Position numbers and translations under genes: made by a program
Source of the DNA: an uncultured bacterium
GTDB taxonomy: Bacteria; Bacillota; Clostridia; Christensenellales; CAG-917
DNA length: 64,000 nucleotides
Reading direction: 5' to 3'
NCBI GenBank assembly: GCA_949432885.1
Contig: CASQXY010000008.1
Location: 663 to 64,662 of the forward strand
In this document: positions 2-61,035 of the stretch, one piece after another
How the letters are laid out: each line of letters opens with the position of its first letter
Numbering within the stretch: position 1 is the first letter of the stretch
The notes under the pieces: generated by a model
Databases searched by the model: none
The model's input: only the letters and a program-made list of their open reading frames with translations
Told to the model about the DNA's origin: nothing

Positions 2-145
2 CTGCCCTCCGCGCGTTTGGAGCCGCCCTATTCGGGAGCTAAGGATATGATTCTCGTAGAGGACTTGGACGATAAGAGATTTCTGATTGAATTATTCGAA
101 GCGATGTATCCCGAGCTACCCTCTCCTAAGCCCAAAAAGAAGTAA
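2..145 (+). CDS. 3' end of an unidentified CDS that enters from the left edge (48 codons, ends ...PSPKPKKK*)
   Basis: The frame is open from the window edge to TAA at 143-145. A strong hairpin follows at 181-214. The fragment is too short to assign a function. Confidence 0.35.
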   Translation: MPSARLEPPYSGAKDMILVEDLDDKRFLIELFEAMYPELPSPKPKKK

Positions 146-180
146 CCCAATAATCTAAACGAATATAATTCTGCTAAAAA

Positions 181-214
181 CACAGGGACGGAAGCAACCG
201 CTTCCGCCCCTGTG
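181..214. terminator. Bidirectional stem-loop terminator between convergent genes
   Basis: CACAGGGACGGAAGC-AACC-GCTTCCGCCCCTGTG is a near-perfect 15-bp stem. It lies between the left-edge CDS (+) and the feo operon (-). Confidence 0.65.
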
Positions 215-263
215 CGCTAAAAAAGAGAGAATATTTCGCTCTGCAAAATGCAAAGAGCTACCG

Positions 264-518
264 TTATGCGTTTGAATCCTCGGGGACTCCGCTCTGTTGC
301 ACTTGCTCATCGCACTCGCAACAATACTTGCCAACCTGCTCTGCCGTATTACCCGAGCCGTGACAACCGCCGCCCGCAGCGCTTTTACAGCTTGCGGCAT
401 ACGGACAGCTTCCGCAGCCCGACGGCTTTCCTTTGAGCTTTCTTACTATCGCAACCGCCGCAAAGGCTATGACAATCACAACCGCCGCGACGATAATCAC
501 AATTTCAACAGGTCCCAT
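264..518 (-). CDS. FeoB-associated Cys-rich small membrane protein (84 aa from the ATG at 518)
   Basis: It has an N-terminal TM helix (VEIVIIVAAVVIVIAFAAVAIV) followed by GCGSCPYAASC...GGCHG. It sits directly downstream of feoB. RBS AGAGGTGA lies 5 nt before ATG 518; the ORF track begins at an upstream TTG. Confidence 0.75.
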   Translation of the reverse strand: MGPVEIVIIVAAVVIVIAFAAVAIVRKLKGKPSGCGSCPYAASCKSAAGGGCHGSGNTAEQVGKYCCECDEQVQQSGVPEDSNA

Positions 519-536
519 ATTCACCTCTGAATACAA

Positions 537-2840
537 TTACTTAGCGCTATCCGCTCTTTTCTTATTCTTCGGATTTAGCTTTGAGAAAAACGAGTTTACG
601 TCGATTTTACCCAAGTTGTTCAAAACTATAATCGTAATTATGCCTGCCCACAGTGCGAGGAAGATGAACAGCGTCCACCACCACGAGCCTATCAGATATA
701 TCATCATGGATACGGCGTAGGACACGATCACCCAGAACAGCAACGTCATGCGGAAGGACTTCTTGCTCGGCGACTCCGCCTTAGCGGTAGCGACAGCCGC
801 AAAGCACGGTATCGTGAGCATATTGAACGCTATAAACGCTATCAGACCGGGAATGCCAATACCCGTCGCTCCGATAAGCGCTTCTATTGAGTCTACGCCG
901 CCGAGAGCTTCGTCCGCAACGAAACCGCTGACCACACATGCCGCAAGCGTTCCAAATGTAGCTATAACGTTCTCCTTTGCGATGAGTCCAGTTATTGCCG
1001 CGACCGCGAACACCCAACCGAACGAGCCTAGCTGACTGCCGAAGCCTACGGGCGTAAAGAGCGGTTGAATAAGCTGACCTATGTTTGCGAGGATACTGTT
1101 GTTCATCTCCTCGTCGGGGAGATAGCCCCAACTCCAAGAGAAGTGACTGAAAAACCAGATAGCTATCGTTGATACGAGTATGATTGTAAACGCTTTCTTT
1201 ATAAAGTGTTTGAGCTTATCCCACAGGTGAAGCATAAGGTTTTTGAACTGCGGCGCGTGATAGGCGGGCAACTCCATGATAAACGGCGGAACTTCGCCTT
1301 TCATAGTGGTATTGCGCATAAGCAGTACGGCGCAGATTGCGACGACTATGCCGAGCAAATACATACTGTACGTAATTATATCGGCGTTGTTTATATTCGC
1401 CAAAGTCAGTATGCCGCCCGAAACCGCCGTCAGAATAGGCAATTTCGCTCCGCAGCTGAAAAACGGAATTACTCTGAGCGTAGCCGTCCTTTCGTTCTGG
1501 TCCGCCAGCGTTCTTGTATTTATCATCGCGGGAACGGAACAGCCGAAGCCCATTATCATCGGCATAAACGCTCTGCCCGACAAACCGAATTTTCTGAAAA
1601 TTCTGTCCAGTATAAACGCGACTCGCGCCATATAACCGCTGTCTTCGAGAATAGAAAAAAACAGGAACAACAACAGGATCTGAGGCAGGAAGCTCAACAC
1701 CGAAAACAGACCTCCGAGCACGCCGTCGCATATAAAACCCGTCGCCCACTCGGCAACACCGCCGCTTTCCATTGCGCCGCGTATTGCGTCTGTAAGAGAA
1801 TCCGTGCCAAGGCCGAGCAAGTTCTGCAAAAACACTCCGGGTGAATTGATTCCGCTCTCTCCGAACAGCCCTTCCGCGGCTGTGCCTTCCAGCGAAACCC
1901 ACCCTTCGGGCAGACCATAGCCTATAAACAGGAAGTTTTCGGAGAACGTAAGATGGAATACCGCAAAAAGAATAAGCAGGAAAATTGGAATACCCCAAAT
2001 CTTATGCGTAAGCACCCTGTCCGCTTTATCCGAGCGCGACAGCTTTTCCTTTTCATTACCCTTGTTCTTCACTACGACGGACGAATAATTTTTGGAGATA
2101 TACTTATATCTGCTGTCGGCGACTATCGCCTCGAAGTCGCTTCCGAACGTATCATCCTCGAAAGTCTGCTTGAACTCCTCGACCATATGAGCGGATTCGG
2201 GGTGCATTTTAACTTCGATTTCGTCAAGCTCCACAAGCTTAATCGCATGGAAAAGCGAATTGTCCACCTTCTGACCTTCGAGCGCGATTTTGCAGTCGCG
2301 TATAAGGTGCATAAGTTGGGTTCCGTCGAGTACGGTAGAGCCCGTTCTCGGCTCTTTGGATATCTCGTACGCGCGCCTCATAAGCTCGTCGAGTCCGCTT
2401 TCTTTAAGCGCGGATATTGCGACTACCGGCAGCCCCATCTTTTCTTCGAGCTTTTCGGGGTCGATTTTATCCCCGTTTTTCTCGACCGCGTCCATCATAT
2501 TAAGAGCAATGACGATAGGAACGTCGATTTCCATAATCTGAGTGGTGAGATACAGATTCCTTTCGAGATTGGTTGCGTCTATTATGTTTATGATACAATC
2601 GGGCTTTTCATCGAGTATGTAATTTCTCGAAATGACTTCCTCGGGAGTATAGGGCGACAGCGAATATATCCCCGGCAAATCGACTATGGCGATTGGCTCG
2701 CCGCACTTTTTGTACACGCCTTCCCTTTTATCTACTGTCACGCCCGGCCAGTTGCCTACGTGCGCGGTAGATCCCGTAAGGCTGTTGAACAACGTGGTTT
2801 TGCCGCAGTTGGGATTTCCCGCAAGAGCAAACTTTTTCAT
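537..2840 (-). CDS. feoB: Ferrous iron transport protein B
   Basis: 767 aa. It has an N-terminal small-GTPase domain (GNPNCGKTTLFN, DLPG) and a polytopic C-terminal gate domain. Its start overlaps the feoA stop by 4 nt. Confidence 0.97.
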   Translation of the reverse strand: MKKFALAGNPNCGKTTLFNSLTGSTAHVGNWPGVTVDKREGVYKKCGEPIAIVDLPGIYSLSPYTPEEVISRNYILDEKPDCIINIIDATNLERNLYLTTQIMEIDVPIVIALNMMDAVEKNGDKIDPEKLEEKMGLPVVAISALKESGLDELMRRAYEISKEPRTGSTVLDGTQLMHLIRDCKIALEGQKVDNSLFHAIKLVELDEIEVKMHPESAHMVEEFKQTFEDDTFGSDFEAIVADSRYKYISKNYSSVVVKNKGNEKEKLSRSDKADRVLTHKIWGIPIFLLILFAVFHLTFSENFLFIGYGLPEGWVSLEGTAAEGLFGESGINSPGVFLQNLLGLGTDSLTDAIRGAMESGGVAEWATGFICDGVLGGLFSVLSFLPQILLLFLFFSILEDSGYMARVAFILDRIFRKFGLSGRAFMPMIMGFGCSVPAMINTRTLADQNERTATLRVIPFFSCGAKLPILTAVSGGILTLANINNADIITYSMYLLGIVVAICAVLLMRNTTMKGEVPPFIMELPAYHAPQFKNLMLHLWDKLKHFIKKAFTIILVSTIAIWFFSHFSWSWGYLPDEEMNNSILANIGQLIQPLFTPVGFGSQLGSFGWVFAVAAITGLIAKENVIATFGTLAACVVSGFVADEALGGVDSIEALIGATGIGIPGLIAFIAFNMLTIPCFAAVATAKAESPSKKSFRMTLLFWVIVSYAVSMMIYLIGSWWWTLFIFLALWAGIITIIVLNNLGKIDVNSFFSKLNPKNKKRADSAK

Positions 2841-5411: not shown

Positions 5412-6212
5412 CTACGCGTTGTTTGCCTCGTAAATTTTTTTTACTCTTTCTTCCAACTCGCTTTTTTCCAAAAAGTATCCGAAGAACCCGAAAACGGAAG
5501 AGCATTTTTCACAGCTCCTCGCATAGTTTCCGTCCCTCGGTATCGACTCGTCGTTAAGACATTCGTAGGCAAGTTCCAGAAAACCTTCAATCATATTCTC
5601 GTTCACCTCATAATTTCCCGGCTCCGTGTCATAAACCAATAAAGCATAATTGACATAAGTCACCGCAAGCTCGCTGTATCCGCCCTTCTTTTTCAAGACG
5701 GCGATAGCCTTGATGTACATATCGCGGGCTTCGTCGTTTTTGCCTCCGACATCGCTCAGCGCGGATGCATAATTATTATATAATCCCGCGAGGCGGAAAT
5801 CGTCGTCGGGGAGCAGCCGTTCGTACACGTCTTTCGCCTTCTCATAATACTCCATCGCCTCCGCCGCTTTGCCGAACGCCTTCATGGTCGTTGCGCAGTT
5901 AAGATATATCGTGGCGTTTGCCACGCTGTCACCGCTATCGGTACAGTTCAAAAGTCCCAGCGCTTCATTCACCGCACGCAAGCCCTTTTCCTCATCCTCC
6001 ATACTGCGATAATATCCAACCTGTTCGCTCAGAATTTCCAAAAGTCCGCGCGTATCATTCAGCGCGCGCGCTTCATTCTCCCAATATTCGAGCAGTCTGC
6101 CCGCCTCCGCCATATCGTTTTTGTCGAAAAGCATATCGAGCTTATCTAATATACGCATTATCGGGATACTTCCCATTGGCTCCTTAGAGCAACAGCATTT
6201 TCCTTCGGACAT
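5412..6212 (-). CDS. Tetratricopeptide-repeat protein (partner of the DUF4037 gene)
   Basis: Repeated A..YY.KA..vYe-type TPR helices. Start moved to ATG 6212 (RBS AAGAAGGAG). The N-terminus is MSEGKCCCSKEP. Confidence 0.75.
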   Translation of the reverse strand: MSEGKCCCSKEPMGSIPIMRILDKLDMLFDKNDMAEAGRLLEYWENEARALNDTRGLLEILSEQVGYYRSMEDEEKGLRAVNEALGLLNCTDSGDSVANATIYLNCATTMKAFGKAAEAMEYYEKAKDVYERLLPDDDFRLAGLYNNYASALSDVGGKNDEARDMYIKAIAVLKKKGGYSELAVTYVNYALLVYDTEPGNYEVNENMIEGFLELAYECLNDESIPRDGNYARSCEKCSSVFGFFGYFLEKSELEERVKKIYEANNA

Positions 6213-9583: not shown

Positions 9584-12500
9584 TTATCTCATTCCGTGCA
9601 AATGCTCTATAAATCTCGAATCGATTACAAAAGTGGACATAGGCGTGATATCCGACTGGTCGCTATATCCGTAAAACACCAATTCCATTTTCGATATGAG
9701 CAGTTCTGCGGCAGCCAAATCGGGGCTCGTGGTTTTCACATCTCTGGTGCGAATGGGTTCTTTGATAAATCTGTCGTCCTCAAAGCGTATATCAAGATAT
9801 ACGGGCTCGTCCAAAATGCCGTCTCCGAAGGATATTCCCGACGACAAAAAGCCCAAATGGAAATACATCGAGTTATCTTCTTCTCTTAGATATCTGCACT
9901 TGGCAAACGTGGGATTTTCCTTAATCAGTCTGCCGGCAAGCGTGCCAATCATCTTGTTGGTGTTCGCGTCGCCCGTATCTATCAGATTGGCATTGTTGAC
10001 GTTCTGCCAGTTGTAAATATCCAAAAAGCCCGTCTGAATTATTGTATTAGTTATTCCTTTTGACAGGAAATGCTCCTTGAAATATTCCGCATTGGCGACA
10101 GGGTCTTTTCTTATAAACCTGCCGTCTCCCGCAGAGCAATTCGGGTACGGATTGGCGTCTCCCGTCTTTTCTACGACTGTAAATCTTTCAAACGGATACG
10201 AACCGATAGAACTTATACAGTTTGAGAAAACGCAGTTGTTGAAATGAGTTACGGAAAATACGGGATAGGTGATAAGCCCGTCTGCGTCGTCAATCGTTTT
10301 CATTCTCGCGGGGATATAGAATGCGGTATTGGATATATTTCTGATGACCACACCGTCGAACGTGCAATCCGCATTGTGGGTCTGTCCCGCTCTTCTGGCG
10401 TTTTCCATAATACAGAATTCGATTCTTATTCCCGTAACCCTCACCTTATCGATATCGGCGTACGGCTGTACGATGACGCACTCGCCACCCAAGCCGTTGG
10501 TTTCGTCGGCGGACAAAGTGCCGTCTTTTTCCATTTTATTCGCACGGAAGTTTAGATTGCTGACCGTAACGTTGCTCCAAACGATATACGTCATCGCTTC
10601 CCATTTGATCAACTGGTCGGTTTCGCATTCCAGCCTATGACCGTTTCCGTACACGTTTCCGAAGAATTTCACATTATTTTCGCTGTCGATTTGCGGAATC
10701 GGTCTCGTATCTTTCTTTCCTTCGTCGTTAGTGAAATCCTCGTATCCGTAGAATTCAAACGCGATATCGCTTGCAAAAACTATGCCGTAATTATGCTTGC
10801 TGTACTCGGATTTGTAATACCTGTACACGTCCGTTCTTCCCTCGGAATAGTTGATGTGCTGGAAACCGAGCTCTTTGGGCATCAGATTATCCGCAGCTCT
10901 CGCATAGGTCTCTTGGTCGGCGCTCGCCTTGCGCAGCTGCTCTATGCTTTCCACCTCGACTCCGTAAACCACCGCGATATCCACGGTATCCGTAGTGAGA
11001 TTTGTCGTGCTCTCGTATCTCGGATACTTGGCGCTGACTTTGACCTTTATTATCTGTTTATCCTTGCCTTTGAGGGCGGAGGGATTGAACACAAGCCGGT
11101 TCGGCTCGTCCGCGCTGTCAGAGAAACGCGCATACTCCGCGCCTTCTGCGACTTCGTAGTTATAGGCGCTGTAAAACAGCCTCAGTTTCGCCGCGAAGGA
11201 GGCGTCCGTATCGGTCTCCGTTCTCTTGGGCGCGCCTATAATTTGGATGAGAACGCTGTTGGCAAACTTCGTGTTATCGTTCTTGTCGGAGTTGGTATAT
11301 TTTTCCGCGGCAAAGACGGTTTCGAGTGCGAGACCTACTTTAAGCGATTCGTTTGAGGTGCGCAGATTCATGGAAACCAGCTTAACCTGTACGTTGAGAA
11401 GCACGCTCGCGGTCTTGCTGTTGCGCTTCGCGTATATCATAGCAAATCCGCTTCCTTTTGCGGACACCTCGCCATTTTCGACATGCACTATATTCTCGTC
11501 CGACTCCGCCTCCCAGCTCACGTTATCGGGCGCGCCCTCTTTAAGAGCGTCCGTCCACACTGCTTTGAGCTTCAACGGCAGTTCACTGACGGCAAACACG
11601 TATCCGCTTTGCGACGAATATATATCCGCGTTTTCTATGGATATGTCGTCCACGTCGCACTTTGTAACGGTGACAGTGCCTCGTGACGTGGTTATATGCG
11701 CCACGTTTTCGGTCAACGTAACCGTGCCGCCTCTAATCGTGCAACCGTCCGACGCAATCACAATATCATCCATGCCCGCGTCCGAAAGTTTAAATGCGTC
11801 AGAAACGCTGAACGAGTCTCCGAATTTGCTCGCGCCCTCCTCAACCTCGACTGTATAAGCCTCGCTGGTCACAAAAACGGTCTTATCGTCGTAGCGGTTT
11901 GCTTTCACGGTTATATCCGCGACGCCCGCTGCATGAGCCGTAACAACACCGTTCGCGTCTACGGACGCGACCTCGGGATTGGAGCTGCTCCATTCCGTCC
12001 TCGTAACGATACTGCTTATGGGATTGTATTTGGCTTCCACAAGCATTCTTTCGCCGACGCGCAGTTTATTGTCGTCCTCGCCAACGTTTGCGATACGTAT
12101 ACTTTCCACGTTGTAGCCTTCGACGGTAACGGTAAGCGTTCTGCTTATACTCTCTACCTGCACGACGACGTTAAATATGCAATACGTGTTGATTTGGAAT
12201 TTCCCCTCTCCCGTATTGCTTACCACCTCGTTGCCCTCGTCGTCTATAAGGCAAGCGGGCGCGGCGACTTTAACGACTTCGGGAGCTTTGCCGAGTGCGT
12301 TTTTCTGCTCGTTGAGCTCGTTGAGCTTCGCGTCCCTCTGCGCCTTTTCCGCATTATACTCTTCTCTGATTTGGGCTTTTATTTCTTCTTTCTCATACGA
12401 AGAAATAGTCTTGTCCTCGTCCACTTTTATTATTTTGGCTTCAAAGTCTCTTTCCGCCACGGCGATTTCAGCGACGACAGCGCTGATTTTATCCTCAATC

Positions 12501-17947: not shown

Positions 17948-17971
17948 ATTATACTCTATCGGATACAAAAT

Positions 17972-18064
17972 GCGAAAGAGGCATTTTTGCGAACCGCCTA
18001 ATGTACTGACGTACATGACGGCAAGCAAAAATGCCTCTGACAAGGTTATGCGCCAAATAGCGCG
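17972..18064 (-). repeat. Bulged long-hairpin element, copy 1 (3 nt after the gpmI stop)
   Basis: Minus strand reads ...UUGUCAGAGGCAUUUUUGC-UU-GCCGUC-AUGUAC-GUCA-GUACAU-UA-GGCGGU-UC-GCAAAAAUGCCUCUUUCGC. The outer stem is a perfect 14 bp (17977-17990 with 18025-18038). Related copies lie at 19734-19829, 21026-21146 and 58438-58560. Confidence 0.7.
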
Positions 18065-18067
18065 GTT

Positions 18068-19633
18068 TTACTTGGTTATACTAGCGTCCCAGTGCCCGTC
18101 AGCCTCAAACCCCATCAAATTTGCGACGGTCGCCGCTACGTTGGACAGACCGAATTCACCGTCCGCAATTTCGCAATCCGCATTATATACTACAAACGGC
18201 ACGACGTTCAAGCTGTGCGCCGTACGTACGGCAAGCTCGCCCTTCTTGTTTTTTTCCAACATTTCGTCGGCGTTGCCGTGGTCTGCCGTGACGGCAAGTA
18301 TATAGTTATTGCGCTTAACTACGGGCAGCAGCCTCGCAAGAGCAAGGTCGACCGCCTCCACTCCTATTATTGTAGCGGGGAGGCTTCCCGTATGTCCGAC
18401 CATATCGCCGTTGGGATAATTGCAACGTATAAATCCGTATTCGCCGCTCTCGATTGCCTCTATGACCTTATCGGTAACCTCTGCGGATTTCATCCAAGGT
18501 CTTTGGTCGAAGGACACCTTATCGCTGGGCACCTCCTCCCATACTTCCAGCTTATCGTCGAATTTCTCCGAGCGGTTGCCGTTCCAGAAATATGTTACAT
18601 GTCCGTATTTTTGCGTTTCGGACACCGCGTAGGACTTCACTCCCAGCTCGACAAGCCTTTCGCTGAGCGTATATTTTATTTGCGGCGGCTCCACAAGGAA
18701 ACGCCTCGGCAAATGCAAGTCGCCGTCGTATTGAAGCATGCCTGCGTACTTCACCGCGGGCATTTCTCCTCTGTCAAAGCCGTCGAAGTCGGCGTTATCG
18801 AATGCCATAGACAATTCGATGGCTCTATCGCCGCGGAAGTTGAAAAGAATCACACAGTCTCCGTCCTTCATTGCGCCGACAGGCCGTCCTCCCTCTTTTA
18901 TCACAAACGCAGGCAAATCTTGGTCGATAATTCCTTCGTTCTCGCATCTGTACGTTTCGATAGCCTCGCGCGCGGTGGCGAAGCCTCTGCCCGCGCCGTA
19001 AACGTGCGTATAGAAGCCCGATTTCACCATATCCCAGTTGGCGAAATATCTATCCATAGTTATCTTCATACGTCCGCCGCCCGAAGCGATTTTCGCGTCG
19101 AAACCGCAATCGTTAAGTTGCGAAAGCGCCTCTTCAAGCATATCGACGTATGTAAGCGCGGAGGTTGCGGGCACGTCTCTGCCGTCAAGCAGGATATGCA
19201 CGCGCACGCGCTTTATACCCTCCGCCTTTGCTTCGCGTATAAGTGAAAGCAGATGTCCGATATTGCTGTGCACGTTTCCGTCCGAAAGCAAGCCTATGAA
19301 ATGCATTGCGGAGCCGTTTTCAACGCAGGTGTTTTTAAGCTCCTGCCAAGCGGCGGATTTGTAGATATCGCCGCTTTCGATAGCCTCTTCGACGAGCTTA
19401 GCGCCCTGAGAGTACACCTGTCCGCAACCGAGAGCGTTGTGCCCGACCTCGCTGTTGCCCATATCCTCGTCCGACGGAAGGCCGACGGCGGTGCCGTGAG
19501 CCTTTACGTATGTATGCGGACATTCCGCCAGCAATTTGTCAAGCGTAGGCGTATTCGCCAACGTCACTGCGTCGCCGAGCCCTGTTTTTGACTTTCCGAC
19601 GCCGTCCATAACTACAAGTAAGAGTTTGTTCAT
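18068..19633 (-). CDS. gpmI: 2,3-bisphosphoglycerate-independent phosphoglycerate mutase
   Basis: 521 aa. MGNSEVGHNALG active-site Ser region and a metalloenzyme C-terminus (TADHGNAD). Confidence 0.97.
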   Translation of the reverse strand: MNKLLLVVMDGVGKSKTGLGDAVTLANTPTLDKLLAECPHTYVKAHGTAVGLPSDEDMGNSEVGHNALGCGQVYSQGAKLVEEAIESGDIYKSAAWQELKNTCVENGSAMHFIGLLSDGNVHSNIGHLLSLIREAKAEGIKRVRVHILLDGRDVPATSALTYVDMLEEALSQLNDCGFDAKIASGGGRMKITMDRYFANWDMVKSGFYTHVYGAGRGFATAREAIETYRCENEGIIDQDLPAFVIKEGGRPVGAMKDGDCVILFNFRGDRAIELSMAFDNADFDGFDRGEMPAVKYAGMLQYDGDLHLPRRFLVEPPQIKYTLSERLVELGVKSYAVSETQKYGHVTYFWNGNRSEKFDDKLEVWEEVPSDKVSFDQRPWMKSAEVTDKVIEAIESGEYGFIRCNYPNGDMVGHTGSLPATIIGVEAVDLALARLLPVVKRNNYILAVTADHGNADEMLEKNKKGELAVRTAHSLNVVPFVVYNADCEIADGEFGLSNVAATVANLMGFEADGHWDASITK

Positions 19634-19733
19634 AATTATCCTTTAAATTTTTTGTTTTAAAAGCGTTCAACTAGAATGCTTTATTGAAATCACTCGGATT
19701 AGCGCATTCGCCAGTTAAAATTCTATATCGGTT

Positions 19734-19829
19734 GCATAGCGCGAAAGACGAGCACGCGAGTCGACCGGTGTATCTTCGTACACGACGACAAGCGCGCGCA
19801 AGTCTGACAAAGCTATGCGAAAATGCGAA
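19734..19829 (-). repeat. Bulged long-hairpin element, copy 2 (2 nt after the tpiA stop)
   Basis: Same architecture with a GC-rich outer stem (GCGCGC/GCGUGC) and lower helix GUCGUC/GUCGAC. An extra closing pair GCATAGC (19734-19740) / GCTATGC (19812-19818) is present. It shares the flanks UUGUCAGA and UCUUUCGC. Confidence 0.65.
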
Positions 19830-19831
19830 TT

Positions 19832-20584
19832 TTAGTAATTGACTACGTTAGAGAAGTCAACCGCCTTCAACGAAGCTCCGCCGATAAGTCCGCCGTCGAT
19901 TTCGGGCATAGCCATAAGCTCTTTGACGTTCTTGGGATTCATGCTTCCGCCGTACTGAATACGCACTCTGTTCTCGGCGCACTTGGGGCAGTAAAGCTCC
20001 GCCATAACCTTTCTGATGATTGCGATAGTCTCGTTTGCGACCTCTGCCGTTGCGGTCTTGCCCGTGCCGATAGCCCAAACGGGTTCATATGCGATTACGA
20101 TATTGTCAAGCTCGTCCTTGTCGATACCCGCAAACGCGCCCTTGGTCTGGCGTACGAGCACTTCTTCCACCTTACCAGCTTCGCGCTCTTCGAGCGTTTC
20201 GCCTACGCAGACAATAGGTTTGAGTCCAGCCGCAAGAGCAGCCTTCGTCCTCGCGTTGACAGTCTCGTCCGTCTCAGCAAAATACTGACGGCGCTCGCTG
20301 TGTCCGATGATGACGTACTCAACGCCGAGCTCGACGAGCATCTTTGCGGATATCTCACCCGTAAACGCTCCTTTATCAGCCCAGTGCACGTTTTCCGCTC
20401 CGACCTTGATATTCGTACCCTTGGTCAATTCTACTGCCGCCGCAAGGTCGGTGTACGGCGTGCATATAACCACGTCGCACTGCGCGTCCTTAACGAGCGG
20501 AATGAGCTCGTTTACAAGAGCCTTGGTCTCTGCGATTGTATTGTTCATTTTCCAGTTTCCTGCGATGATTGCTTTTCTTGACAT
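19832..20584 (-). CDS. tpiA: Triosephosphate isomerase
   Basis: [25 protein letters not shown] motifs. 250 aa. Confidence 0.97.
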
Positions 20585-20645
20585 ATTTTCACCTCTGAAA
20601 ATTTTTTATTATTAACAATAGTTAACATTACTTTACTTATTGCAC

Positions 20646-21146
20646 GTCGGGGTCTCTAAATAGAATAACCCCCTTCCTCAGATGTTCCCCTATTGCGGTC
20701 TCTCACATTTAACTCCGTCAAACAGGGACGTTTGACGGAGACCCCAAGTGAGCCTCTCCGCAAGTCTTACGACGTGGGAACACAACGCGATTGGACTTTC
20801 AGTCAACAATCGCTATTCCGTCGCTACGCTTCTTACGGCGCTCGCATATACAAGCATAAAGCTCTGCTTATGCCACTCGCTCGGGAGCGAATAAACGGGA
20901 CTCACTACCTCGCTTGTACAAAGCGTCAAGCTCGGCACTCGAATGGCGCGCGCCTTGCACGCGCTGGTGCAGTCTCTTGATAAAGTGCACGGCGTATTCG
21001 ATTCTTATCAAACTTAATTGCACGGAATAATGCGATATTTGGATGAAGAGCAAGGAAGACGAGCACACGAGCCGCCAAACGTACTTGCGTACGTGACGGC
21101 GAGTGCGCACAGTCTGACAAAGCTATTCGCCAAATAGCGCGTTATT
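20646..21146 (-). repeat. Composite structured element of about 500 nt filling the pgk-tpiA spacer (hairpin module 21026-21146 plus a 380-nt module)
   Basis: The hairpin copy has a GCAA tetraloop. Its outer inverted repeat AATAATGCGATATTTGG / CCAAATAGCGCGTTATT overlaps the pgk stop. The remainder shares ordered blocks with 23281-23564 and 58081-58437. Confidence 0.7.
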
Positions 21147-22452
21147 CATTTAGACAGGCAATGCCGGGAAGGACTTTACCTTCCAAAAACTCCAACGACG
21201 CGCCGCCGCCCGTAGAAATATGAGACATCTTGTCCGCAAAGCCGAGCTGGGCGACCGCCGCCGCGCTGTCTCCGCCGCCGATGATGGTTGTTGCGTCCGT
21301 CTCCGCCATAGCCTTTGCGACAGCGATTGTGCCTTGCGCGCAGGTGGGGTTCTCAAACACGCCCATAGGTCCGTTCCATACGACGGTCTTCGCGCTCTTT
21401 ATGGCTTCGGCAAACAGCTCCTGCGTTTTTACGCCGATATCGAGTCCCATTTTATCTGCGGGAATGGACATACTCTCCACGCACTCAACCTCGATAGGAG
21501 CGTTGATTGGGTCGGGGAATGCAGGGGCGACCATAGTGTCCACAGGCAGATAGATAGTCTTGCCGAGGGACTTTGCCTTTTCAAGCATGCTCTTGCAGTA
21601 TTCAACCTTCTCCTCGTCGACCAAGGAAGTGCCTATTGTACCGCCCTGCGCCTTGATGAAGGTATACGCCATACCGCCGCCGATGATAAGAGTGTCGCAC
21701 TTCCCGAGCAGATTGTCGATAACGTTGAGCTTATCGGCAACCTTAGCGCCGCCGAGAATAGCGACGAAAGGACGTACGGGATTTTCAACGGCATTGCCGA
21801 GGAATTTCAATTCCTTTTCGATAAGGAAGCCGCTGACCGCGGTCTTTGCAAAGCCGTACTGAACGATGCCCGCCGTCGTCGCATGCGCGCGGTGCGCCGT
21901 GCCGAACGCGTCGTTGACGTACACATCGCAGAAATCCGCAAGCTGTCGGCAAAGCTCCTCGCTGTTCTTCTCCTCGCCTGCATAGAAACGGGTGTTTTCA
22001 AGCAACACGATTTCCCCTTCCTTCATAGCCGCGACCTTTGTATGCGCGTCCTCTCCTACGAGGTCGCAAGCAAACTTGACTCTGCCGGGGAAGAGCTCCG
22101 CAAGTCTGTCCGCAACGGGTTTGAGCGTAAATTTCTTTTGGTCGTTTTTCAATGCCTTTGCGATATACTCCGCCTTCGCCGCCTCTCTCTCGTTTTCGGG
22201 AAGAGCCTCAACCGCCTTTTTCTCCTTCTTATTGAGTCCGAAGCCCTCGGTGAAAATATTGTGCGGCTTACCCATATGCGAGCACAGTATCACCTTCGCG
22301 CCGTGATTTACGAGATACGTGATAGTGGGAAGCGCGCCGTTGATACGGTTCTCATCGGTGATAACGCCGTCCACCATAGGAACGTTGAAATCGCATCTGC
22401 ACAGGCATTTTTTGCCCTGTACGTCAATGTCGCGGATTGTCAGTTTTGCCAT
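21142..22452 (-). CDS. pgk: Phosphoglycerate kinase (436 aa, with an insertion of about 40 aa)
   Basis: [18 protein letters not shown] motifs. There is extra charged sequence at about aa 65-106. Confidence 0.97.
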
Positions 22453-22752: not shown

Positions 22753-23238
22753 TCAATACTTCGTCAGGCGTCCCTGCTCCAAAAGGTTCGCGCCGCCAGT
22801 CTGGCGTATCGCCTCGTATACGACTATCGCCACGGAGTTGGAAAGGTTGAGGCTTCTCGCCTCGGATATCATAGGTATGCGTATCGCTCTGTCATAGTTG
22901 TCGCGCAGAAGTTCTTCGGGCAGCCCCTTTGTCTCCTTGCCGAACACGAGATAGTCTCCCTCGCGGAAATCCGCGCCGTCATATCTCTTTGCTCCTTTTG
23001 TCGTCAGATACCAAAACCGACCGTCTGCGTTTTTTTCAAAAAATTCGTCGAGATTTTCATACACAATGAAGTCCGTAAGGTGCCAGTAATCCAATCCCGC
23101 GCGCTTCAACGCCCTGTCGCTTATGTCAAATCCGAGCGGCTTGACAAGGTGGACCTTGCTTCCCGTCGCCGCCGCGGTGCGCACTATGTTACCTGTGTTC
23201 TGCGGTATTTCAGGTTCGACTAAAACTATATTAAACAT
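22753..23238 (-). CDS. trmL: tRNA (cytidine/uridine-2'-O-)-methyltransferase TrmL (SpoU family)
   Basis: 161 aa. LVEPEIPQNTGNIVRTAAATG and the SPOUT knot C-terminus (LNLSNSVAIVVYEA). Confidence 0.9.
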   Translation of the reverse strand: MFNIVLVEPEIPQNTGNIVRTAAATGSKVHLVKPLGFDISDRALKRAGLDYWHLTDFIVYENLDEFFEKNADGRFWYLTTKGAKRYDGADFREGDYLVFGKETKGLPEELLRDNYDRAIRIPMISEARSLNLSNSVAIVVYEAIRQTGGANLLEQGRLTKY

Positions 23239-23280
23239 ATTCTTTTCCTTTACAAAAACTGCTAGTTTTATACTTTAATT

Positions 23281-23564
23281 GAAAAGCCCCCTCTTTCCCT
23301 TCGGGCTTTTCTCCCACCACTCGAATTAGGAACGTACACTATTTAACGTTCCGTCGCTCGCGGAGGGAGACACTCGGCGCTCGCATATACAAGCTTAGAA
23401 CACTGTTTATATCACTCGTTCGCGGACTTAAACAACAATGTCCGCTCACTTGTACGGAACGTCAAGCTCGGCACTCAGGTAGGCGCGCGCCCTGCACGCG
23501 CTATGCAGCTCCTTGAACGACGACTCGTCGTATTCACACTCGTTCAAGCCGATGAGATTATATA
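23281..23564 (-). repeat. Structured element, 284-nt module only (begins immediately after the dus stop at 23565-23567)
   Basis: It shares blocks and hairpins with 20646-21025 and 58081-58437. The terminal stem is GAAAAGCCC/GGGCTTTTC (23281-23311). The 8-bp hairpin lies at 23483-23501. There are four CGAGUG motifs on the minus strand. Confidence 0.65.
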
Positions 23565-57551: not shown

Positions 57552-57965
57552 TTGATTGAAGACGAGGGCTTATCGCTTCGCGCGTTCGCAGAAGCCGTCG
57601 ACATTCCGTATCAAGAAGTATACGCCTATGAAAATGACGGATATTTACCATCTGTATATAATGCGGAAAAAATCGCGTTGTTTTTCGATTGCTCTTTTGA
57701 TTATCTTTTCGGAGTATCAAACACTTTTAAGCAGACAACGTATAAAAAAGTAGATATTTCTCTGTTTTATCCTAGATATAAAGAACTTTTAGAGAAAGAG
57801 AAAGTAAGCCATTATAATTTACATAAAACTATTAAATTGAATAATTCCAGTATAACAAAGTGGAAAAACGGTTCTGTTCCAAGAATAGAAAGTTTAATAA
57901 AAATTGCTACCCGCTTTTCAACTCATATTGACTACCTAGTCGGTCGTAGCGATAGTCGGTACTAA
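57552..57965 (+). CDS. XRE-family protein with two tandem HTH_3 domains (start codon unclear)
   Basis: GLSLRAFAEAVDIPYQEVYAYENDGYLPS...FDYLFG and SHYNLHKTIKLNNSSITKWKNGSVPR...IDYLVG. The frame is open from 57498 with no upstream ATG; only TTG codons at 57537 and 57552 are available. Confidence 0.6.
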   Translation: MIEDEGLSLRAFAEAVDIPYQEVYAYENDGYLPSVYNAEKIALFFDCSFDYLFGVSNTFKQTTYKKVDISLFYPRYKELLEKEKVSHYNLHKTIKLNNSSITKWKNGSVPRIESLIKIATRFSTHIDYLVGRSDSRY

Positions 57966-57983
57966 TTATTACAAGATGAGAAT

Positions 57984-58018
57984 TCAGTTGGGTATTATCA
58001 CTGACCAACTGATTTTTT
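57984..58018 (+). terminator. Rho-independent terminator of the XRE gene
   Basis: CAGTTGG-(13 nt)-CCAACTG followed by T7. Confidence 0.7.
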
Positions 58019-58080
58019 TATACACCTTATCAGAATAAGGGTGACTTGGTCTACAAGGGTAGACGGCGTATACTCTAAAA

Positions 58081-58560
58081 AGAAATTGCCCCCTCTTTCA
58101 CTTCGGGTATTTCTCCCACCACTCGAATTAGAAAAGTAGTCTTTTTTACTCTCCGTCGCTCGCGGGGGAGACAGTCGGCACTCGCCTATTGTCATATTAT
58201 TCTATCTATGTCACTCGGTCGCAAACGTAAATTAATAAAGCTCGTTTGCTCCCTAGTACTGCGAAGCTCGGCTCGGCACTCACGGGGCGTTCGCCCTGCG
58301 AACGCTGGCAGTCTCTTGAAAAAGTGCATGTCGTGTACACACCCGCACAAGCTAAGTGCAAGCGCTTTAAGTGCGCAATTAGTCTCTTGAATTATGACTC
58401 ATAGTTCTCTCCACCTTATCAATCTAAGCGTTAAATCAAAACTTCATCATTAAGAGAAGAACGCGAAAGAGACATTTTTGCGAACCGCCTAACGTACTGA
58501 CGTACGTGACGGCGAGCAAAAATGCCTCTGACAAAGTTATTCGCTTAATGATGAAGTTTT
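58081..58560 (-). repeat. Composite structured element (hairpin module 58438-58560 overlapping the rex stop, plus a 357-nt module 58081-58437)
   Basis: The 17-bp perfect outer stem AAAACTTCATCATTAAG / CTTAATGATGAAGTTTT encloses a core hairpin nearly identical to the copy at 17972-18064. The rest shares ordered blocks and covarying hairpins with 20646-21025 and 23281-23564. Confidence 0.7.
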
Positions 58561-59184
58561 GAGTTGCATACTGAGAAGTGCAAGCGAAGCCGCCAAATCC
58601 TCCCCTTTCACCGCTATGTCGGGCGGCAGGCTGAGATGCACGGGTGCAAAGCACCATATCGCTCTTATCCCCGCTTTTACCATTTTATCCGCGACGGACT
58701 GCGCCGCAACCGACGGCACGCAGATTATGCCGAGCTGAATTTTGAACCTGTTCACCACGCTGTCCAGATTGTCCAGATGATATACGGGCTTGCCGTTGAC
58801 CTCTTTGCCGATAGCATCCTCGTTTACGTCGAACGCGGCGACTATATTCAAGCCGTAATTGCGGAAACCGTCGTATCCGAGTATCGCGCGCCCCAGTCCG
58901 CCCGCACCAACAAGCACCGCGTCGCGCGTGTTGTTGTATCCCAGATAGCCTTCGAGGTCGGCAATCAAATCCTTGGTTGCATAACCCGTTTTAGGCTTAC
59001 CCGCAACGGATGCCACAAGCGCGATATCCTTTCTCACCTGCACGGGATTGAGTCCCAGTCCGTTTGCAATCGTCGTACTGGAAACAGTGGGCACGTTTTT
59101 CTTGTCCAGCTGATACAAATACCTTAGATAGGACGGAAGTCTGTTGAGAGTCGCTTTCGACATTTCGGAGTTTTGTTCCTGCAT
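58537..59184 (-). CDS. rex: Redox-sensing transcriptional repressor Rex
   Basis: N-terminal winged helix (ATLNRLPSYLRYL) and Rossmann motif GAGGLGRAIL. 215 aa. Confidence 0.93.
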   Translation of the reverse strand: MQEQNSEMSKATLNRLPSYLRYLYQLDKKNVPTVSSTTIANGLGLNPVQVRKDIALVASVAGKPKTGYATKDLIADLEGYLGYNNTRDAVLVGAGGLGRAILGYDGFRNYGLNIVAAFDVNEDAIGKEVNGKPVYHLDNLDSVVNRFKIQLGIICVPSVAAQSVADKMVKAGIRAIWCFAPVHLSLPPDIAVKGEDLAASLALLSMQLKTSSLSE

Positions 59185-59348: not shown

Positions 59349-60728
59349 CTATTGCTGCGAGTTTTGCTCATCCATCATCTCGTCCACTTTGAGCATAATC
59401 GCGCACTCTATGCGCTTTTTGAAGAGGTCGCAGCCGTACGCGTACGTGCCGTTGATGTCCCCCGTAGAATTGTATGCGTTTGCGGCGCAGCCTCCCGAGC
59501 AGTACAGTCTGGCCCAGCATTCCTCGCACTCCTTACGCGAATAGGCGTTGCATTTTTTGAATTTGTCGCGTATATCCGTCCTAGTAACGCCCTGCCATAT
59601 ATCGCCCATCAGGTAGTCTTTATTCCCCACAAACTGATGACAGGGATACAGCTCACCAGTAGGCGTGACGGCGAGGTATTCCGTGCCGCTTCCGCAGCCC
59701 GATATGCGCTTATATATGCACGGACCGCCGTCGAGGTCAAGCATGTAGTGATAAAACGTAAAGGGCTTGCCGGCCTTCCTGCGCTCAATCATCATATCGG
59801 CAAGTTTCTCGTACTGACCGTATATAATTTCTTTATCCTCGTCGGTAAGCGCGTACTTGTCCGTAGGCGGACACACGACAGGCTCCATACTCAACTCGTC
59901 AAATCCGAGGTCGAGCATCGTGGCAATATCCTCGGTGAAGTCGGGATTGAAATGCGTAAATGTGCCTCGCATATAGTAGCTTCCGTTCTTTCTTGCGTCC
60001 ACGAGCTTTTTGAACTTAGGTACTATAACGTCGAAGCTGCCATTACCTCCCGCGGTCTTGCGGAAACGGTCATGCACCTCTTTCCTTCCGTCAAGACTGA
60101 GCACTACGTTATCCATTTCTCGGTTGCAGAAATCTATCACGTCGTCGTCGATAAGCATGCCGTTTGTGGTAAGCGTAAATCTGAAATGCTTGCCGCATTT
60201 CTCCTCAATGTCGCGCGCGTACTCGACCAGCCGCTTCACAACGTCAAAGTTCATAAGCGGTTCTCCGCCGAAAAAATCAACTTCGAGATTATGACGCGTG
60301 CCGCTGTTCTCCACAAGGAAATCGAGAGCTCGCCGCCCCACATCGTAGGACATAAGCGCGCGTTCGCCGCGGTATTTGCCCTGCGCCGCAAAGCAATACT
60401 CGCAATCGAGGTTGCAGGTATGCGCCACGTGCAGGCACAACGCCTTTATCACGGAATCGCGCTTTGCAAGTATATTCGCATTCGGTTTGAACGTATCCTC
60501 CGAAAACAGCTTGCCCCGAGCTTTGATTTCCTCAACGTCCGCAATACATTCCAGCGCCTCTTCGGCGGTTATACCGTGTTTTTCGCATACGGATTTTAAA
60601 ATCTGTTCCTTATCCTCGCGTTCGTACGCGTTGATAACGTCGTAGGCGACTTCGTCCACAACATGCACGCTGCCGCTCGCCGCGTCGAGCACGATATTGT
60701 ATCCGTTTTGTCTGAATGAATGAATCAT
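59349..60728 (-). CDS. scfB: Radical SAM/SPASM thioether-forming SCIFF peptide maturase
   Basis: CNLDCEYC radical-SAM cluster motif. The C-terminus is Cys-rich and SPASM-like (CGSGTEYLAV...C...CEECWARLYCSGGC). It lies directly downstream of the SCIFF precursor. Start at ATG 60728 (RBS GGAGAGAA). Confidence 0.9.
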   Translation of the reverse strand: MIHSFRQNGYNIVLDAASGSVHVVDEVAYDVINAYEREDKEQILKSVCEKHGITAEEALECIADVEEIKARGKLFSEDTFKPNANILAKRDSVIKALCLHVAHTCNLDCEYCFAAQGKYRGERALMSYDVGRRALDFLVENSGTRHNLEVDFFGGEPLMNFDVVKRLVEYARDIEEKCGKHFRFTLTTNGMLIDDDVIDFCNREMDNVVLSLDGRKEVHDRFRKTAGGNGSFDVIVPKFKKLVDARKNGSYYMRGTFTHFNPDFTEDIATMLDLGFDELSMEPVVCPPTDKYALTDEDKEIIYGQYEKLADMMIERRKAGKPFTFYHYMLDLDGGPCIYKRISGCGSGTEYLAVTPTGELYPCHQFVGNKDYLMGDIWQGVTRTDIRDKFKKCNAYSRKECEECWARLYCSGGCAANAYNSTGDINGTYAYGCDLFKKRIECAIMLKVDEMMDEQNSQQ

Positions 60729-60834
60729 ATGTATTCTCTCCGCCGCGGCTATGCAAACGCACAATCGCGCCGCGCTTCAATTTATTTCCGCTGATTATGA
60801 CGGCAGGTATCCGCACAATAAAGTGCGCCGTCAC

Positions 60835-60860
60835 AAAAAACGCCTAGACGGTGCTAGGCG
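60835..60860 (-). terminator. Intercistronic terminator/attenuator hairpin between scfA and scfB
   Basis: On the minus strand, CGCCTAG-CACCGT-CTAGGCG is followed by T6. Confidence 0.65.
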
Positions 60861-60888
60861 ACTTTCTGTATGAAAAATACGGCAGAGC

Positions 60889-61035
60889 TTATTTTGCCGC
60901 TTTCTCGCACTTCTGATTTGCCACACCGCAGGACGTCTTGCAAGCGGATTGGCAGGAAGTTTGGCACTCGCCGCAACCGCCGTTCTTTTTGCTCTCGTTG
61001 AGATTGCGGGTTTTCAATGTAACGATTCTTTTCAT
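60889..61035 (-). CDS. scfA: Six-cysteine peptide SCIFF (48 aa RiPP precursor; below the ORF-track length cut-off)
   Basis: My translation is MKRIVTLKTRNLNESKKNGGCGECQTSCQSACKTSCGVANQKCEKAAK. The GGCGECQTSCQSACKTSC core matches the SCIFF family as I recall it. RBS AAGGAGCAA. Confidence 0.9.
   Translation of the reverse strand: MKRIVTLKTRNLNESKKNGGCGECQTSCQSACKTSCGVANQKCEKAAK

Follow-up and report, generated by a model that had tools for sequence, protein, structure and literature searches.

The 3′ end of the rex gene, which encodes a redox-sensing repressor, was analysed in a 64,000-nt stretch of contig CASQXY010000008.1 from an uncultured bacterium of the Christensenellales (the "window", i.e. 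the whole stretch of DNA analysed). On the minus strand, the last codons of rex lead into a hairpin module (HP, 58560 to 58438), which is followed by a long module (LM, 58421 to ~57979) and then by the terminator of a convergent helix-turn-helix (HTH) gene. The C-terminus of Rex reads ...SMQLKTSSLSE-stop, and its last seven codons and the stop codon fall within HP. The features of this gene end are as follows:

58537-59184, minus strand: rex coding sequence (CDS), 215 aa, redox-sensing repressor, from the list of open reading frames (ORFs); homologues with PF06971 and PF02629 are named Rex
58429-58568, minus strand: HP at rex, nhmmer profile match with E = 2.9e-38; the folded part is 58438-58560
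58544-58560, minus strand: 5′ arm (in mRNA sense) of the HP outer stem, encoding K-T-S-S-L and part of the S of Rex
58438-58454, minus strand: 3′ arm of the HP outer stem, non-coding, fully complementary to the coding arm
58536-58544, minus strand: conserved internal-loop motif GCGAATAAC, seen in the alignments, giving the S-E-stop of Rex
58481-58516, minus strand: HP apex CGCCGTCACGTAC-GTCA-GTACGTTAGGCGG, where conservation within the family is highest (direct-repeat family, near-invariant columns, helix 5 paired to 99.6%)
57979-58421, minus strand: LM at rex, ~440 nt
58361-58421, minus strand: extra 5′ sub-unit A′ of LM, beginning with TGATAAGGTG (58412-58421) and holding TCAAGAGACT (58381-58390) and a small hairpin
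57979-58360, minus strand: LM core, structured RNA module, nhmmer E = 4.1e-99
58271-58319, minus strand: LM core block TCAAGAGACTGC...GAGTGCCGAGC, followed by central hairpins
58088-58168, minus strand: LM 3′ domain GTCTCCCCC...GAAAGAGGGGGC, followed by the tail
58023-58032, minus strand: second TGATAAGGTG, an LM unit-boundary motif 56 nt past the polypurine end, forming a small hairpin with 58033-58043
57985-58019, plus strand: terminator-like hairpin and T-run of the convergent HTH gene (57552-57965), read from the sequence; far-side limit of the element

As a preliminary description of this DNA had claimed, HP at rex is closed by the inverted repeat AAAACTTCATCATTAAG (58438-58454) / CTTAATGATGAAGTTTT (58544-58560), which is perfect over its 17 bp, and translation confirmed that the right arm encodes the KTSSL of Rex and that the flank GCGAATAAC supplies S-E-stop. 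In an inverted-repeat search, the arms reached a length of 30 nt with a complementarity of 90%, and a 141-nt stretch comprising the hairpin folds with -67.6 kcal/mol (z = -12.5 versus shuffled sequences). The TAA at 58537-58539 within GCGAATAAC, i.e. the stop codon of rex, is out of frame and unused in most HP copies; besides rex, eight ORFs use this inner TAA as their stop. The observation itself is confirmed, while the interpretation that had been attached to it is partly supported, as detailed below.

The last seven codons and the stop codon of rex are translated repeat sequence. The canonical 5′ arm of HP reads T-AAA-ACC-GCG-CTA-TTG-AGC-GAA-TAA-C and, if the T is taken to complete the codon before it, is translated to K-T-A-L-L-S-E-stop. 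Unrelated ORFs with unmodified arms end likewise, i.e. with ...KTALLSE in L068 and ...KNALLSE in L071, and also in L095 and L057 (L numbers denote the loci used for comparison). In the clade that carries HP, the Rex tails are KTSSLSE, TTSSLNE, KTPSFSE, ENSSIGE, KTPPLGE, and NTPPIGE. In contrast, alignment of the rex 3′ ends of relatives without HP revealed other, shorter tails (TKTL, KSL, ISRD), and more distant Rex proteins stop soon past SMQL with unrelated residues. Because the same tails occur on unrelated ORFs and HP-less Rex relatives end otherwise, the tail of Rex is derived from the element, which supports the earlier proposal that an element inserted at rex created the gene end.

The frame of rex is one base off the terminal TAA of the element. 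In the simplest model, either this T was lost or the insertion took place one base out of register; in the offset frame, ribosomes translate seven codons of the 5′ arm, reach the inner GAA-TAA and halt there. Repeats that lengthen the 3′ ends of genes are a known phenomenon, e.g. Rickettsia palindromic elements, BRE, and RUP or BOX fusions, all of which extend protein genes (PMC3184786), and the Rex tail is such a case. It differs from them in that the coding arm stays constrained by pairing with a non-coding arm and that the tail ends at a stop codon built into the repeat.

The arms of the outer stem were compared in four species:

window, rex HP: 5′ arm AAAACTTCATCATTAAG, 3′ arm CTTAATGATGAAGTTTT, 17/17 pairs
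L001 (sister species), rex HP: 5′ arm CACGACCTCTTCGTTGA, 3′ arm TCAACGAAGAGGTCGTG, 17/17 pairs
L044, rex HP: 5′ arm AAAAACACCTTCATTCAG, 3′ arm CTGAATGAAGACGTTTTT, 16/18 pairs
L045, rex HP: 5′ arm GAAAACTCATCAATAGG, 3′ arm CCCATTGCTGAGTTTTC, 15/17 pairs

The sequence of the 5′ arm changes in the three orthologues, yet pairing persists. The window and L001 are ~87% identical at the nucleotide level over the locus; their homology spans rex and ends at 58441, i.e. at the end of the 3′ arm of HP, and the adjacent spacer cannot be aligned. Between the two, seven substitutions are found in the coding arm, and for every one of them the non-coding arm carries the matching change. As the coding arm drifted, its non-coding partner changed with it, so that the stem stays paired in four species, which makes the rex HP a clear evolutionary case of a coding and a non-coding arm co-evolving for stem pairing. 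The HP interior and the rex CDS diverge about equally slowly between the window and L001 (identities of 79/88 and 592/648, respectively); the corresponding values for L044 are 76/90 and 503/649. An HP is also present at upp in three species, with arms that have diverged and are still paired.

Other orthologues show stages of loss. At L043, HP is gone, and rex ends with the tail ISRD, followed by a terminator. At L006, only a remnant of the arm is left and the tail is ENRRI. At L004, the tail is KTPPLGE; the arm, the GAATAA, and the GCGTT(T)TCTTCAT strand are kept, the interior is remodelled, and no folded hairpin is found. Formally, L004 is thus a Rex with such a C-terminus and without the element, but we regard it as a decayed copy of HP because the arm, the GAATAA, and the GCGTT(T)TCTTCAT strand remain.

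The spacer between the convergent genes rex and glyQS is wholly different between species. In L001, this variable spacer contains, between glyQS and the HP of rex, a fragment of a BRO-N-like ORF (10850-10960), and in L006 two tandem hairpin repeats of a different repeat family, GTCATTGCGAGGC...GCCGAAGCAATCC (10650-10760), follow the decayed arm. A further HP, at a ypeB-like gene in a metagenome-assembled genome (MAG) of a different species (L019, 2951-3100), has an interior that is identical in 88/88 positions to window 58455-58543. Compared with 79/88 for the orthologous copy in L001, this value is a hint that HPs were recently copied, were exchanged or evolved in concert.

In uncultured, Christensenellales-like Clostridia of the gut, HP is a ~130-nt (about 125-135) imperfect palindrome. 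When metagenomes were scanned for its pattern, 50 loci were returned, and together with the genome loci 104 profile hits were obtained, from which 48 non-redundant copies were aligned for structure. The consensus is a single long hairpin, made up of an outer stem, two asymmetric internal loops that are conserved, an inner stem that varies, and a conserved apex. The fraction of paired cells is 92.8%, compared with 69.2% for shuffled partners and at most 48% for slid partners, and compensatory double changes are found in 37 of the 40 pairs. The canonical outer stem is AAAACCGCGCTATTTGG / CCAAATATCGCGGTTTT; its outermost 6-17 bp are specific for the locus and compensated, with end variants such as TAAAACC...GGTTTTA, CTGAG...CTCAG, GATGAC...GTCATC, and others.

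HP is anchored to stop codons. For 55 of the 58 independent "first" copies with upstream sequence, an ORF of at least 80 aa on the same strand ends in the 5′ arm, and in 42 of these 55 the stop codon constitutes the first paired bases. The mirrored antisense control gave 8 of 60, at scattered positions. The copies start with TAA followed by AACCGCGC or, in other sub-families, with (C)TGAG(GG)CGCGC. The preliminary description had noted that the outer repeat of the pgk copy covers the stop codon; this is correct (TAA at 21142-21144), and it is the rule across the family. The genes with HP include pgk, tpiA, gpmI, rex, upp, rplQ, typA, mnmA, those for FTHFS, GDH, POR, PEPCK, Fe-hydrogenase and aspartokinase, and transporter genes, i.e. 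dispersed chromosomal housekeeping genes in normal synteny. They retain their native C-termini, e.g. ...FGTK in Upp. Where two such genes are convergent, each has its own HP in its own sense orientation, back to back (L059, L089).

Two explanations of the ends of HP were considered and rejected. Its 5′ arm is not a three-frame stop cassette, as 8 of the 48 copies close all frames, which equals the antisense arm and is near the value for shuffled sequences. A TA or TAA target duplication is not supported, because the flanks after the 3′ arm lack the expected base and no consistent flank exists beyond the stop codon. Tandem arrays of HP comprise up to four units (L071, 318-817; also L052, L054, L060, L073), and the outer arms of the later units are missing or partial. 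For the target duplication of HP, the empty sites compared at gpmI (L096 and L099) were too diverged for a decision. Several TpiA homologues (P0123-P0128) are called with 265-294 aa instead of 250 aa, and these calls may enter the upstream repeat.

Self-comparison and profile searches revealed a total of four HPs and three LMs in the window. All four HPs are on the minus strand, as are the genes at whose stop codons they lie, and in the pgk-tpiA-gpmI run (17954-21153) an HP is found at the stop codon of every gene. Apart from those at rex, the copies are:

21029-21153, minus strand: HP at the pgk stop codon, nhmmer E = 6.5e-29, with the stop TAA (21142-21144) within the outer stem AATAACGCGCTATTTGG / CCAAATATCGCATTATT
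19715-19839, minus strand: HP at the tpiA stop codon, strongly diverged, nhmmer E = 2.1e-9, recognised by sequence, fold and stop position
17954-18077, minus strand: HP at the gpmI stop codon, profile match; its 3′ arm is decayed, and a canonical terminator comes after it
about 20640-21017, minus strand: LM in the pgk-tpiA spacer, with a variant 3′ domain
23201-23555, minus strand: LM that lacks an HP, flanked by a dus-like gene and a gene for a SpoU methylase

LM, a structured RNA module of 350-440 nt, is separate from HP and occurs in multiple copies. A genome scan with TCAAGRRRCTGC...GAGTGCCGAGC found twenty loci in three Clostridia MAGs, with at least 18 copies in one MAG; seven further matches in other phyla were rejected as chance matches within coding sequence. 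An LM is built from one to three 5′ sub-units of ~94 nt, each starting with TGATAAGGTG or a variant and ending with GAGTGCCGAGC, followed by central hairpins, a 3′ domain that has at least three alternative forms and ends in the polypurine GAAAGAGGGGG, and a tail. The architecture of sub-unit A′ recurs in L012, L015, and L034, and in L009 one to three of the sub-units stand in tandem. Upstream of LM, either rex, pgk, dus, upp, rplQ, FTHFS, ypeB or HTH genes are found, or no gene.

The structure of LM was derived from an alignment of only 13 related sequences, in which 98% of the cells are paired and 14 pairs in three well-supported helices show double changes, these values being calculated from the same alignment. 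The alignment also contains a tandem G.A motif between covarying pairs and repeated CGAGUG motifs. On the gene-sense strand, 59 G.U compare with 5 A.C, and the sense fold is the more stable one in 11 of the 13 copies. As judged from this asymmetry and covariation, an action of LM as an RNA on the gene-sense strand is well supported.

It is possible, if doubtful, that LM is an independent multicopy gene for a small RNA (a regulatory RNA, a ribozyme, or a guide or scaffold RNA) and a chance neighbour of HP at rex. The strong RNA-type asymmetry, the covariation and the above-mentioned motifs fit this explanation, and so do the LM without HP at 23201-23555, an LM antisense to operons (L097), LMs behind terminators or divergent promoters, and LMs near genes for SRP (signal recognition particle) RNA and tRNAs (L013, 174-849; L026, 1-541). 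On the other hand, the junction GGTTTTATAATATGG-TTGATAAGGTG between HP and LM recurs at several different loci (L010, L019, L021), no promoter-like site was predicted before the LM copies of the window, and no Rfam family is available to anchor a function.

Searches for known relatives of the modules were negative. With Rfam 15, no family matched at its gathering score across the window, a permissive search (E up to 10) of the HP and LM regions yielded only chance-level snoRNA matches, and LM and HP in eight further loci gave no match. The unmatched families include HEARO/IscB RNA, IS605-orfB motifs, group I and II introns, ROOL, GOLLD, OLE, and self-cleaving ribozymes. Nothing similar to HP or LM was found in collections of phages, plasmids, and viruses, and reading of the sequences revealed no conserved frame in small ORFs of HP or LM. 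A literature search by sequence strings and by topic did not retrieve an earlier account of HP or LM, which is no proof of absence. LM is a candidate for a multicopy structured RNA that is not in Rfam.

We favour the view that the rex segment represents a copy of a mosaic repeat that is specific to the lineage and consists of two modules, and we regard it as probable that this repeat is similar in kind to repetitive extragenic palindromes (REPs) and bacterial interspersed mosaic elements (BIMEs), or to BOX. In an E. coli set, 260 of 496 REPs lie within 15 nt of a stop codon, and such REPs stall ribosomes and lower translation (PMC12306157). Like REPs, BIMEs, and REPINs (REP doublets forming hairpins), HP is a high-copy extragenic palindrome behind genes and in operon spacers and forms mosaics with other motifs; REPs and BIMEs are co-transcribed, and the same is proposed for HP and LM. 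HP differs in that it has no 5′ GTAG-type head, its conserved parts being internal loops and apex, that its anchor lies at 0 nt, the stop codon being part of the pairing, and that its hosts are Clostridia. Its partner module is a structured RNA of 350 nt and not a short motif as in BIMEs. BOX of Streptococcus pneumoniae is modular (A-B-C), with an internal sub-unit in a variable tandem number, and it is transcribed and structured. LM with its one to three tandem 5′ sub-units resembles BOX, but it is larger and shows RNA-type covariation; the likeness is one of architecture, and no sequence relationship was seen.

Further classes of elements share single properties with the two modules. The attC sites of integrons are imperfect palindromes of 57-141 nt just behind, and often overlapping, stop codons, in the same orientation; their structure is more conserved than their sequence, and the bottom strand is the functional one. 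HP resembles them in its stop-codon position, its orientation, and its conservation of structure over sequence, but it has no RYYYAAC...GTTRRRY core sites, no integrase, and no cassette array, and its genes are dispersed housekeeping genes in normal synteny. In contrast to the omega-RNA of IS200/IS605 and the guide RNAs of TnpB and IscB, no tnpB or iscB gene lies upstream of LM. Miniature inverted-repeat transposable elements (MITEs) such as Correia/NEMIS of Neisseria and RUP of pneumococcus have 100-150 bp, their terminal inverted repeats fold to long RNA hairpins, and they are often co-transcribed. The ends TA-AAAC...GTTT-TA of the canonical HP are compatible with a TA flank. However, compared with MITEs as defined in PMC3184786, the outermost pairs of HP vary by locus and co-evolve in place, a consistent target-site duplication is missing, no related insertion sequence (IS) was found in about 0.8 Mb of loci, and the copies are kept at orthologous genes across species and are not scattered. 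Stop-anchored hairpins of 130 nt, a compensated coding arm, and a large structured RNA partner outside Rfam are unusual for elements of the REP, BIME or BOX kind.

Under the mosaic-repeat reading, HP and LM would be transcribed with the upstream mRNA, as its 3′ untranslated region or as an intercistronic part. HP would probably act in the manner of REPs close to stop codons, as a highly stable 3′ hairpin, the base of which a terminating ribosome must partly melt. It may protect or process the 3′ side of the mRNA and tune expression of the upstream gene; effects on mRNA stability, on processing and on the yield of the upstream gene are suggested by this analogy. The copies would have spread as non-autonomous repeats, probably by recombination or template switching. 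A tie of HP to translated mRNA is indicated by the sense orientation of 95% of the copies, the base-exact anchoring at stop codons, and the separate HPs of convergent genes. If this reading is correct, a conserved hairpin with the stop codon itself as its base lies behind genes of central metabolism and translation in many abundant, uncultured Clostridia of the gut, and offers a testable handle on mRNA 3′ ends, operon stoichiometry or translation termination in this group. The HP/LM family would also account for unusual C-terminal tails and wrongly called gene ends in the annotation of this lineage, and breaks in MAG assemblies could be explained by it because contigs end within the repeats.

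Several points weigh against this reading. Co-transcription of HP and LM, and any effect on mRNA or translation, is something that we infer. HP is 3-4 times longer (~125-135 nt) than REPs (~20-40 nt; REPINs ~70-110 nt), and REPs are linked to REP-associated tyrosine transposases (RAYTs), none of which was found for HP. The base-exact anchoring at stop codons fits no insertion mechanism known to us. In L097, L071, and L087, LM has the antisense orientation, and in L022, L028, L032, and L033 it is found behind terminators or divergent promoters; because it is not always on the gene-sense strand, "one composite element" is a loose description. Lastly, the helices of HP contain 43 G.U and 38 A.C, i.e. 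they carry no signature of a sense-strand RNA. In 36 of the 48 copies, the more stable fold is that of the antisense strand, which is better by 3.8 kcal/mol on average. An assignment of HP to a sense RNA by G.U/A.C asymmetry therefore failed. As a sense-strand signature is missing, the pairing could be conserved at the DNA level without an RNA function, for a recombinase substrate or by templated correction of a quasipalindrome.

This leads to an alternative that we consider unlikely, namely that HP is a single-strand DNA hairpin, similar to REPINs, attC or the ends of IS200/605, which is recognised and copied by an HUH or tyrosine recombinase. The stop-codon position would then reflect target choice, and the pairing would serve the enzyme or result from templated repair, and not serve the RNA. 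The nearly equal frequencies of G.U and A.C agree with this alternative, and the antisense strand gains a conserved G.T (45/48) and has G.T in 19 copies in which the sense strand has A.C. The REPIN- or attC-like size and shape, the tandem arrays, and the identical interiors at non-orthologous genes of two species, suggestive of recent copying, also agree with it. However, no recombinase or transposase was found near the copies, the attC cores RYYYAAC/GTTRRRY are absent and the outermost pairs depend on the locus (TAAAAC, CTGAG(GG), GATGAC, and others), and dispersed housekeeping genes do not form a cassette array. In addition, orthologous copies persist across species, and the sense orientation, stop anchoring, and opposed HPs between convergent genes (L059, L089) argue for a link to translation.

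With a similarly low expectation, HP and LM may be an undescribed 3′-end system of gut Clostridia, in either of two forms. In the first, a repeat would home to, or be selected at, the exact stop codon, with copying or selection coupled to translation termination. In the second, a stop-sequestering hairpin would be combined with a new class of ~350-nt structured RNA, e.g. a module for processing, for stability or for a ribonucleoprotein.

Even less probable is that HP acts as an oversized intrinsic terminator or attenuator, with an A-tract (TAAAA), a GC-rich stem base (CCGCGC/GCGCGG), and a U-tract, and sets the read-through into downstream genes or into LM. At least five T within 9 nt after the stem base were found in 24 of the 48 copies, the canonical sub-family has the form UAAAAC-CGCGC...GCGCG-GUUUUA, and the rex copy is followed by UUUUGAUUUAA. 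On the other side, the rex HP of the sister species (L001) has no U-tract, and a consensus scan saw no minus-strand terminator at the rex HP; the same scan missed the plus-strand hairpin at 57985-58019, the loop of which exceeds 8 nt. A pure terminator role is unlikely because HPs lie within the pgk-tpiA-gpmI operon, TGAG-type sub-families have no U-tract, and separate canonical terminators follow the gpmI HP and others.

The mode of spread bears on a direct repeat that the preliminary description had considered a possible target-site duplication, which would favour a mobile origin of LM. The 10-mer CACCTTATCA (read as TGATAAGGTG on the minus strand) is real and brackets the module, with the copy at 58412-58421 correctly placed and the other one at 58023-58032 instead of 58022-58031; these are the only two exact matches in the window. 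With up to one mismatch, 10 matches were found compared with 2.8 expected, and the recurrence is not random because the 10-mer is a family motif. With up to two mismatches, TGATAAGGTG is located upstream of TCAAGAGACTGC, at a distance of 15-50 nt, in 10 of 26 LM copies at unrelated loci in other genomes, and at +55 to +57 past the polypurine end in 8 of 20 copies, again at unrelated loci. It also forms the joint where LM units abut in tandem (L013, L021, L023, L027). An insertion duplication would vary by locus, and TGATAAGGTG does not: all loci share one bracketing motif. The "direct repeat" is therefore a unit-boundary motif of LM and not a target-site duplication.

Presence of LM varies between species and strains. 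Conspecific contigs (L035-L042) have the same architecture as the window, whereas the sister species (L001) has the rex HP and no LM. In another species, two strains with identical TpiA (L096 and L097) have pgk-tpiA spacers of 200 nt and 567 nt, respectively. Comparison of L096 3261-3520 with L097 2894-3520 revealed that 110 nt are replaced by 477 nt without a flanking duplication, with breakpoints after CATCCGA and before AGAGGTT; in the long allele, an antisense LM-like module takes the place of the 3′ strand of HP and the remaining spacer. This looks like a replacement via recombination or template switching and not like cut-and-paste or copy-and-paste transposition with target-site duplication. 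The short allele (L096) contains a 24-nt partial duplicate of the pgk end and the HP 5′ arm (CAAGCACTAATCGGCGAAyAGCC).

A MITE-like or retro-element insertion of LM, with CACCTTATCA as target-site duplication and an autonomous partner (transposase, reverse transcriptase, TnpB or IscB) elsewhere, would agree with the exact bracketing 10-mer and with the multicopy, variable LM, but it is already largely refuted, and very improbable, given the fixed internal positions of the motif, the replacement without duplication, and the failure to find a partner. No transposase-like ORF lies next to any HP or LM copy, and no transposase, reverse transcriptase or TnpB was found there; no autonomous IS with the same ends was seen in about 0.8 Mb of loci, nor in the phage, plasmid, and viral sets. 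A tblastn search for Y1/RAYT transposases in 0.79 Mb of flanking DNA yielded no match, which is weak evidence.

Additional observations concern the surroundings of the modules. XRE-type HTH genes adjoin LM in differing orientations at four loci (window 57552-57965, plus strand; L012, 192-395; L015, 896-1108; L034, 7393-7968). A specific tie of LM to these genes was rejected, as the proteins share only a generic similarity of 22-30%. In L009 (~2290-2560, minus strand), L017 (~100-330, minus strand), and L020 (~5750-5950, plus strand), the place of HP in front of LM is taken by another repeat module, "X" (...GTGTGCTGTGAGCGCAAAC.CATAAGGGGCAAAAAG-hairpin-CTTTTTGCGAAATA). A short repeat with GGGGTCCC is found downstream of HP in L047, L048, L050, and L062, and inside an LM variant in L022. 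Upstream of rex (59349-61035, minus strand), the window contains a gene for a SCIFF peptide (60889-61035) and one for its radical-SAM maturase (59349-60764), an arrangement that is kept in relatives.

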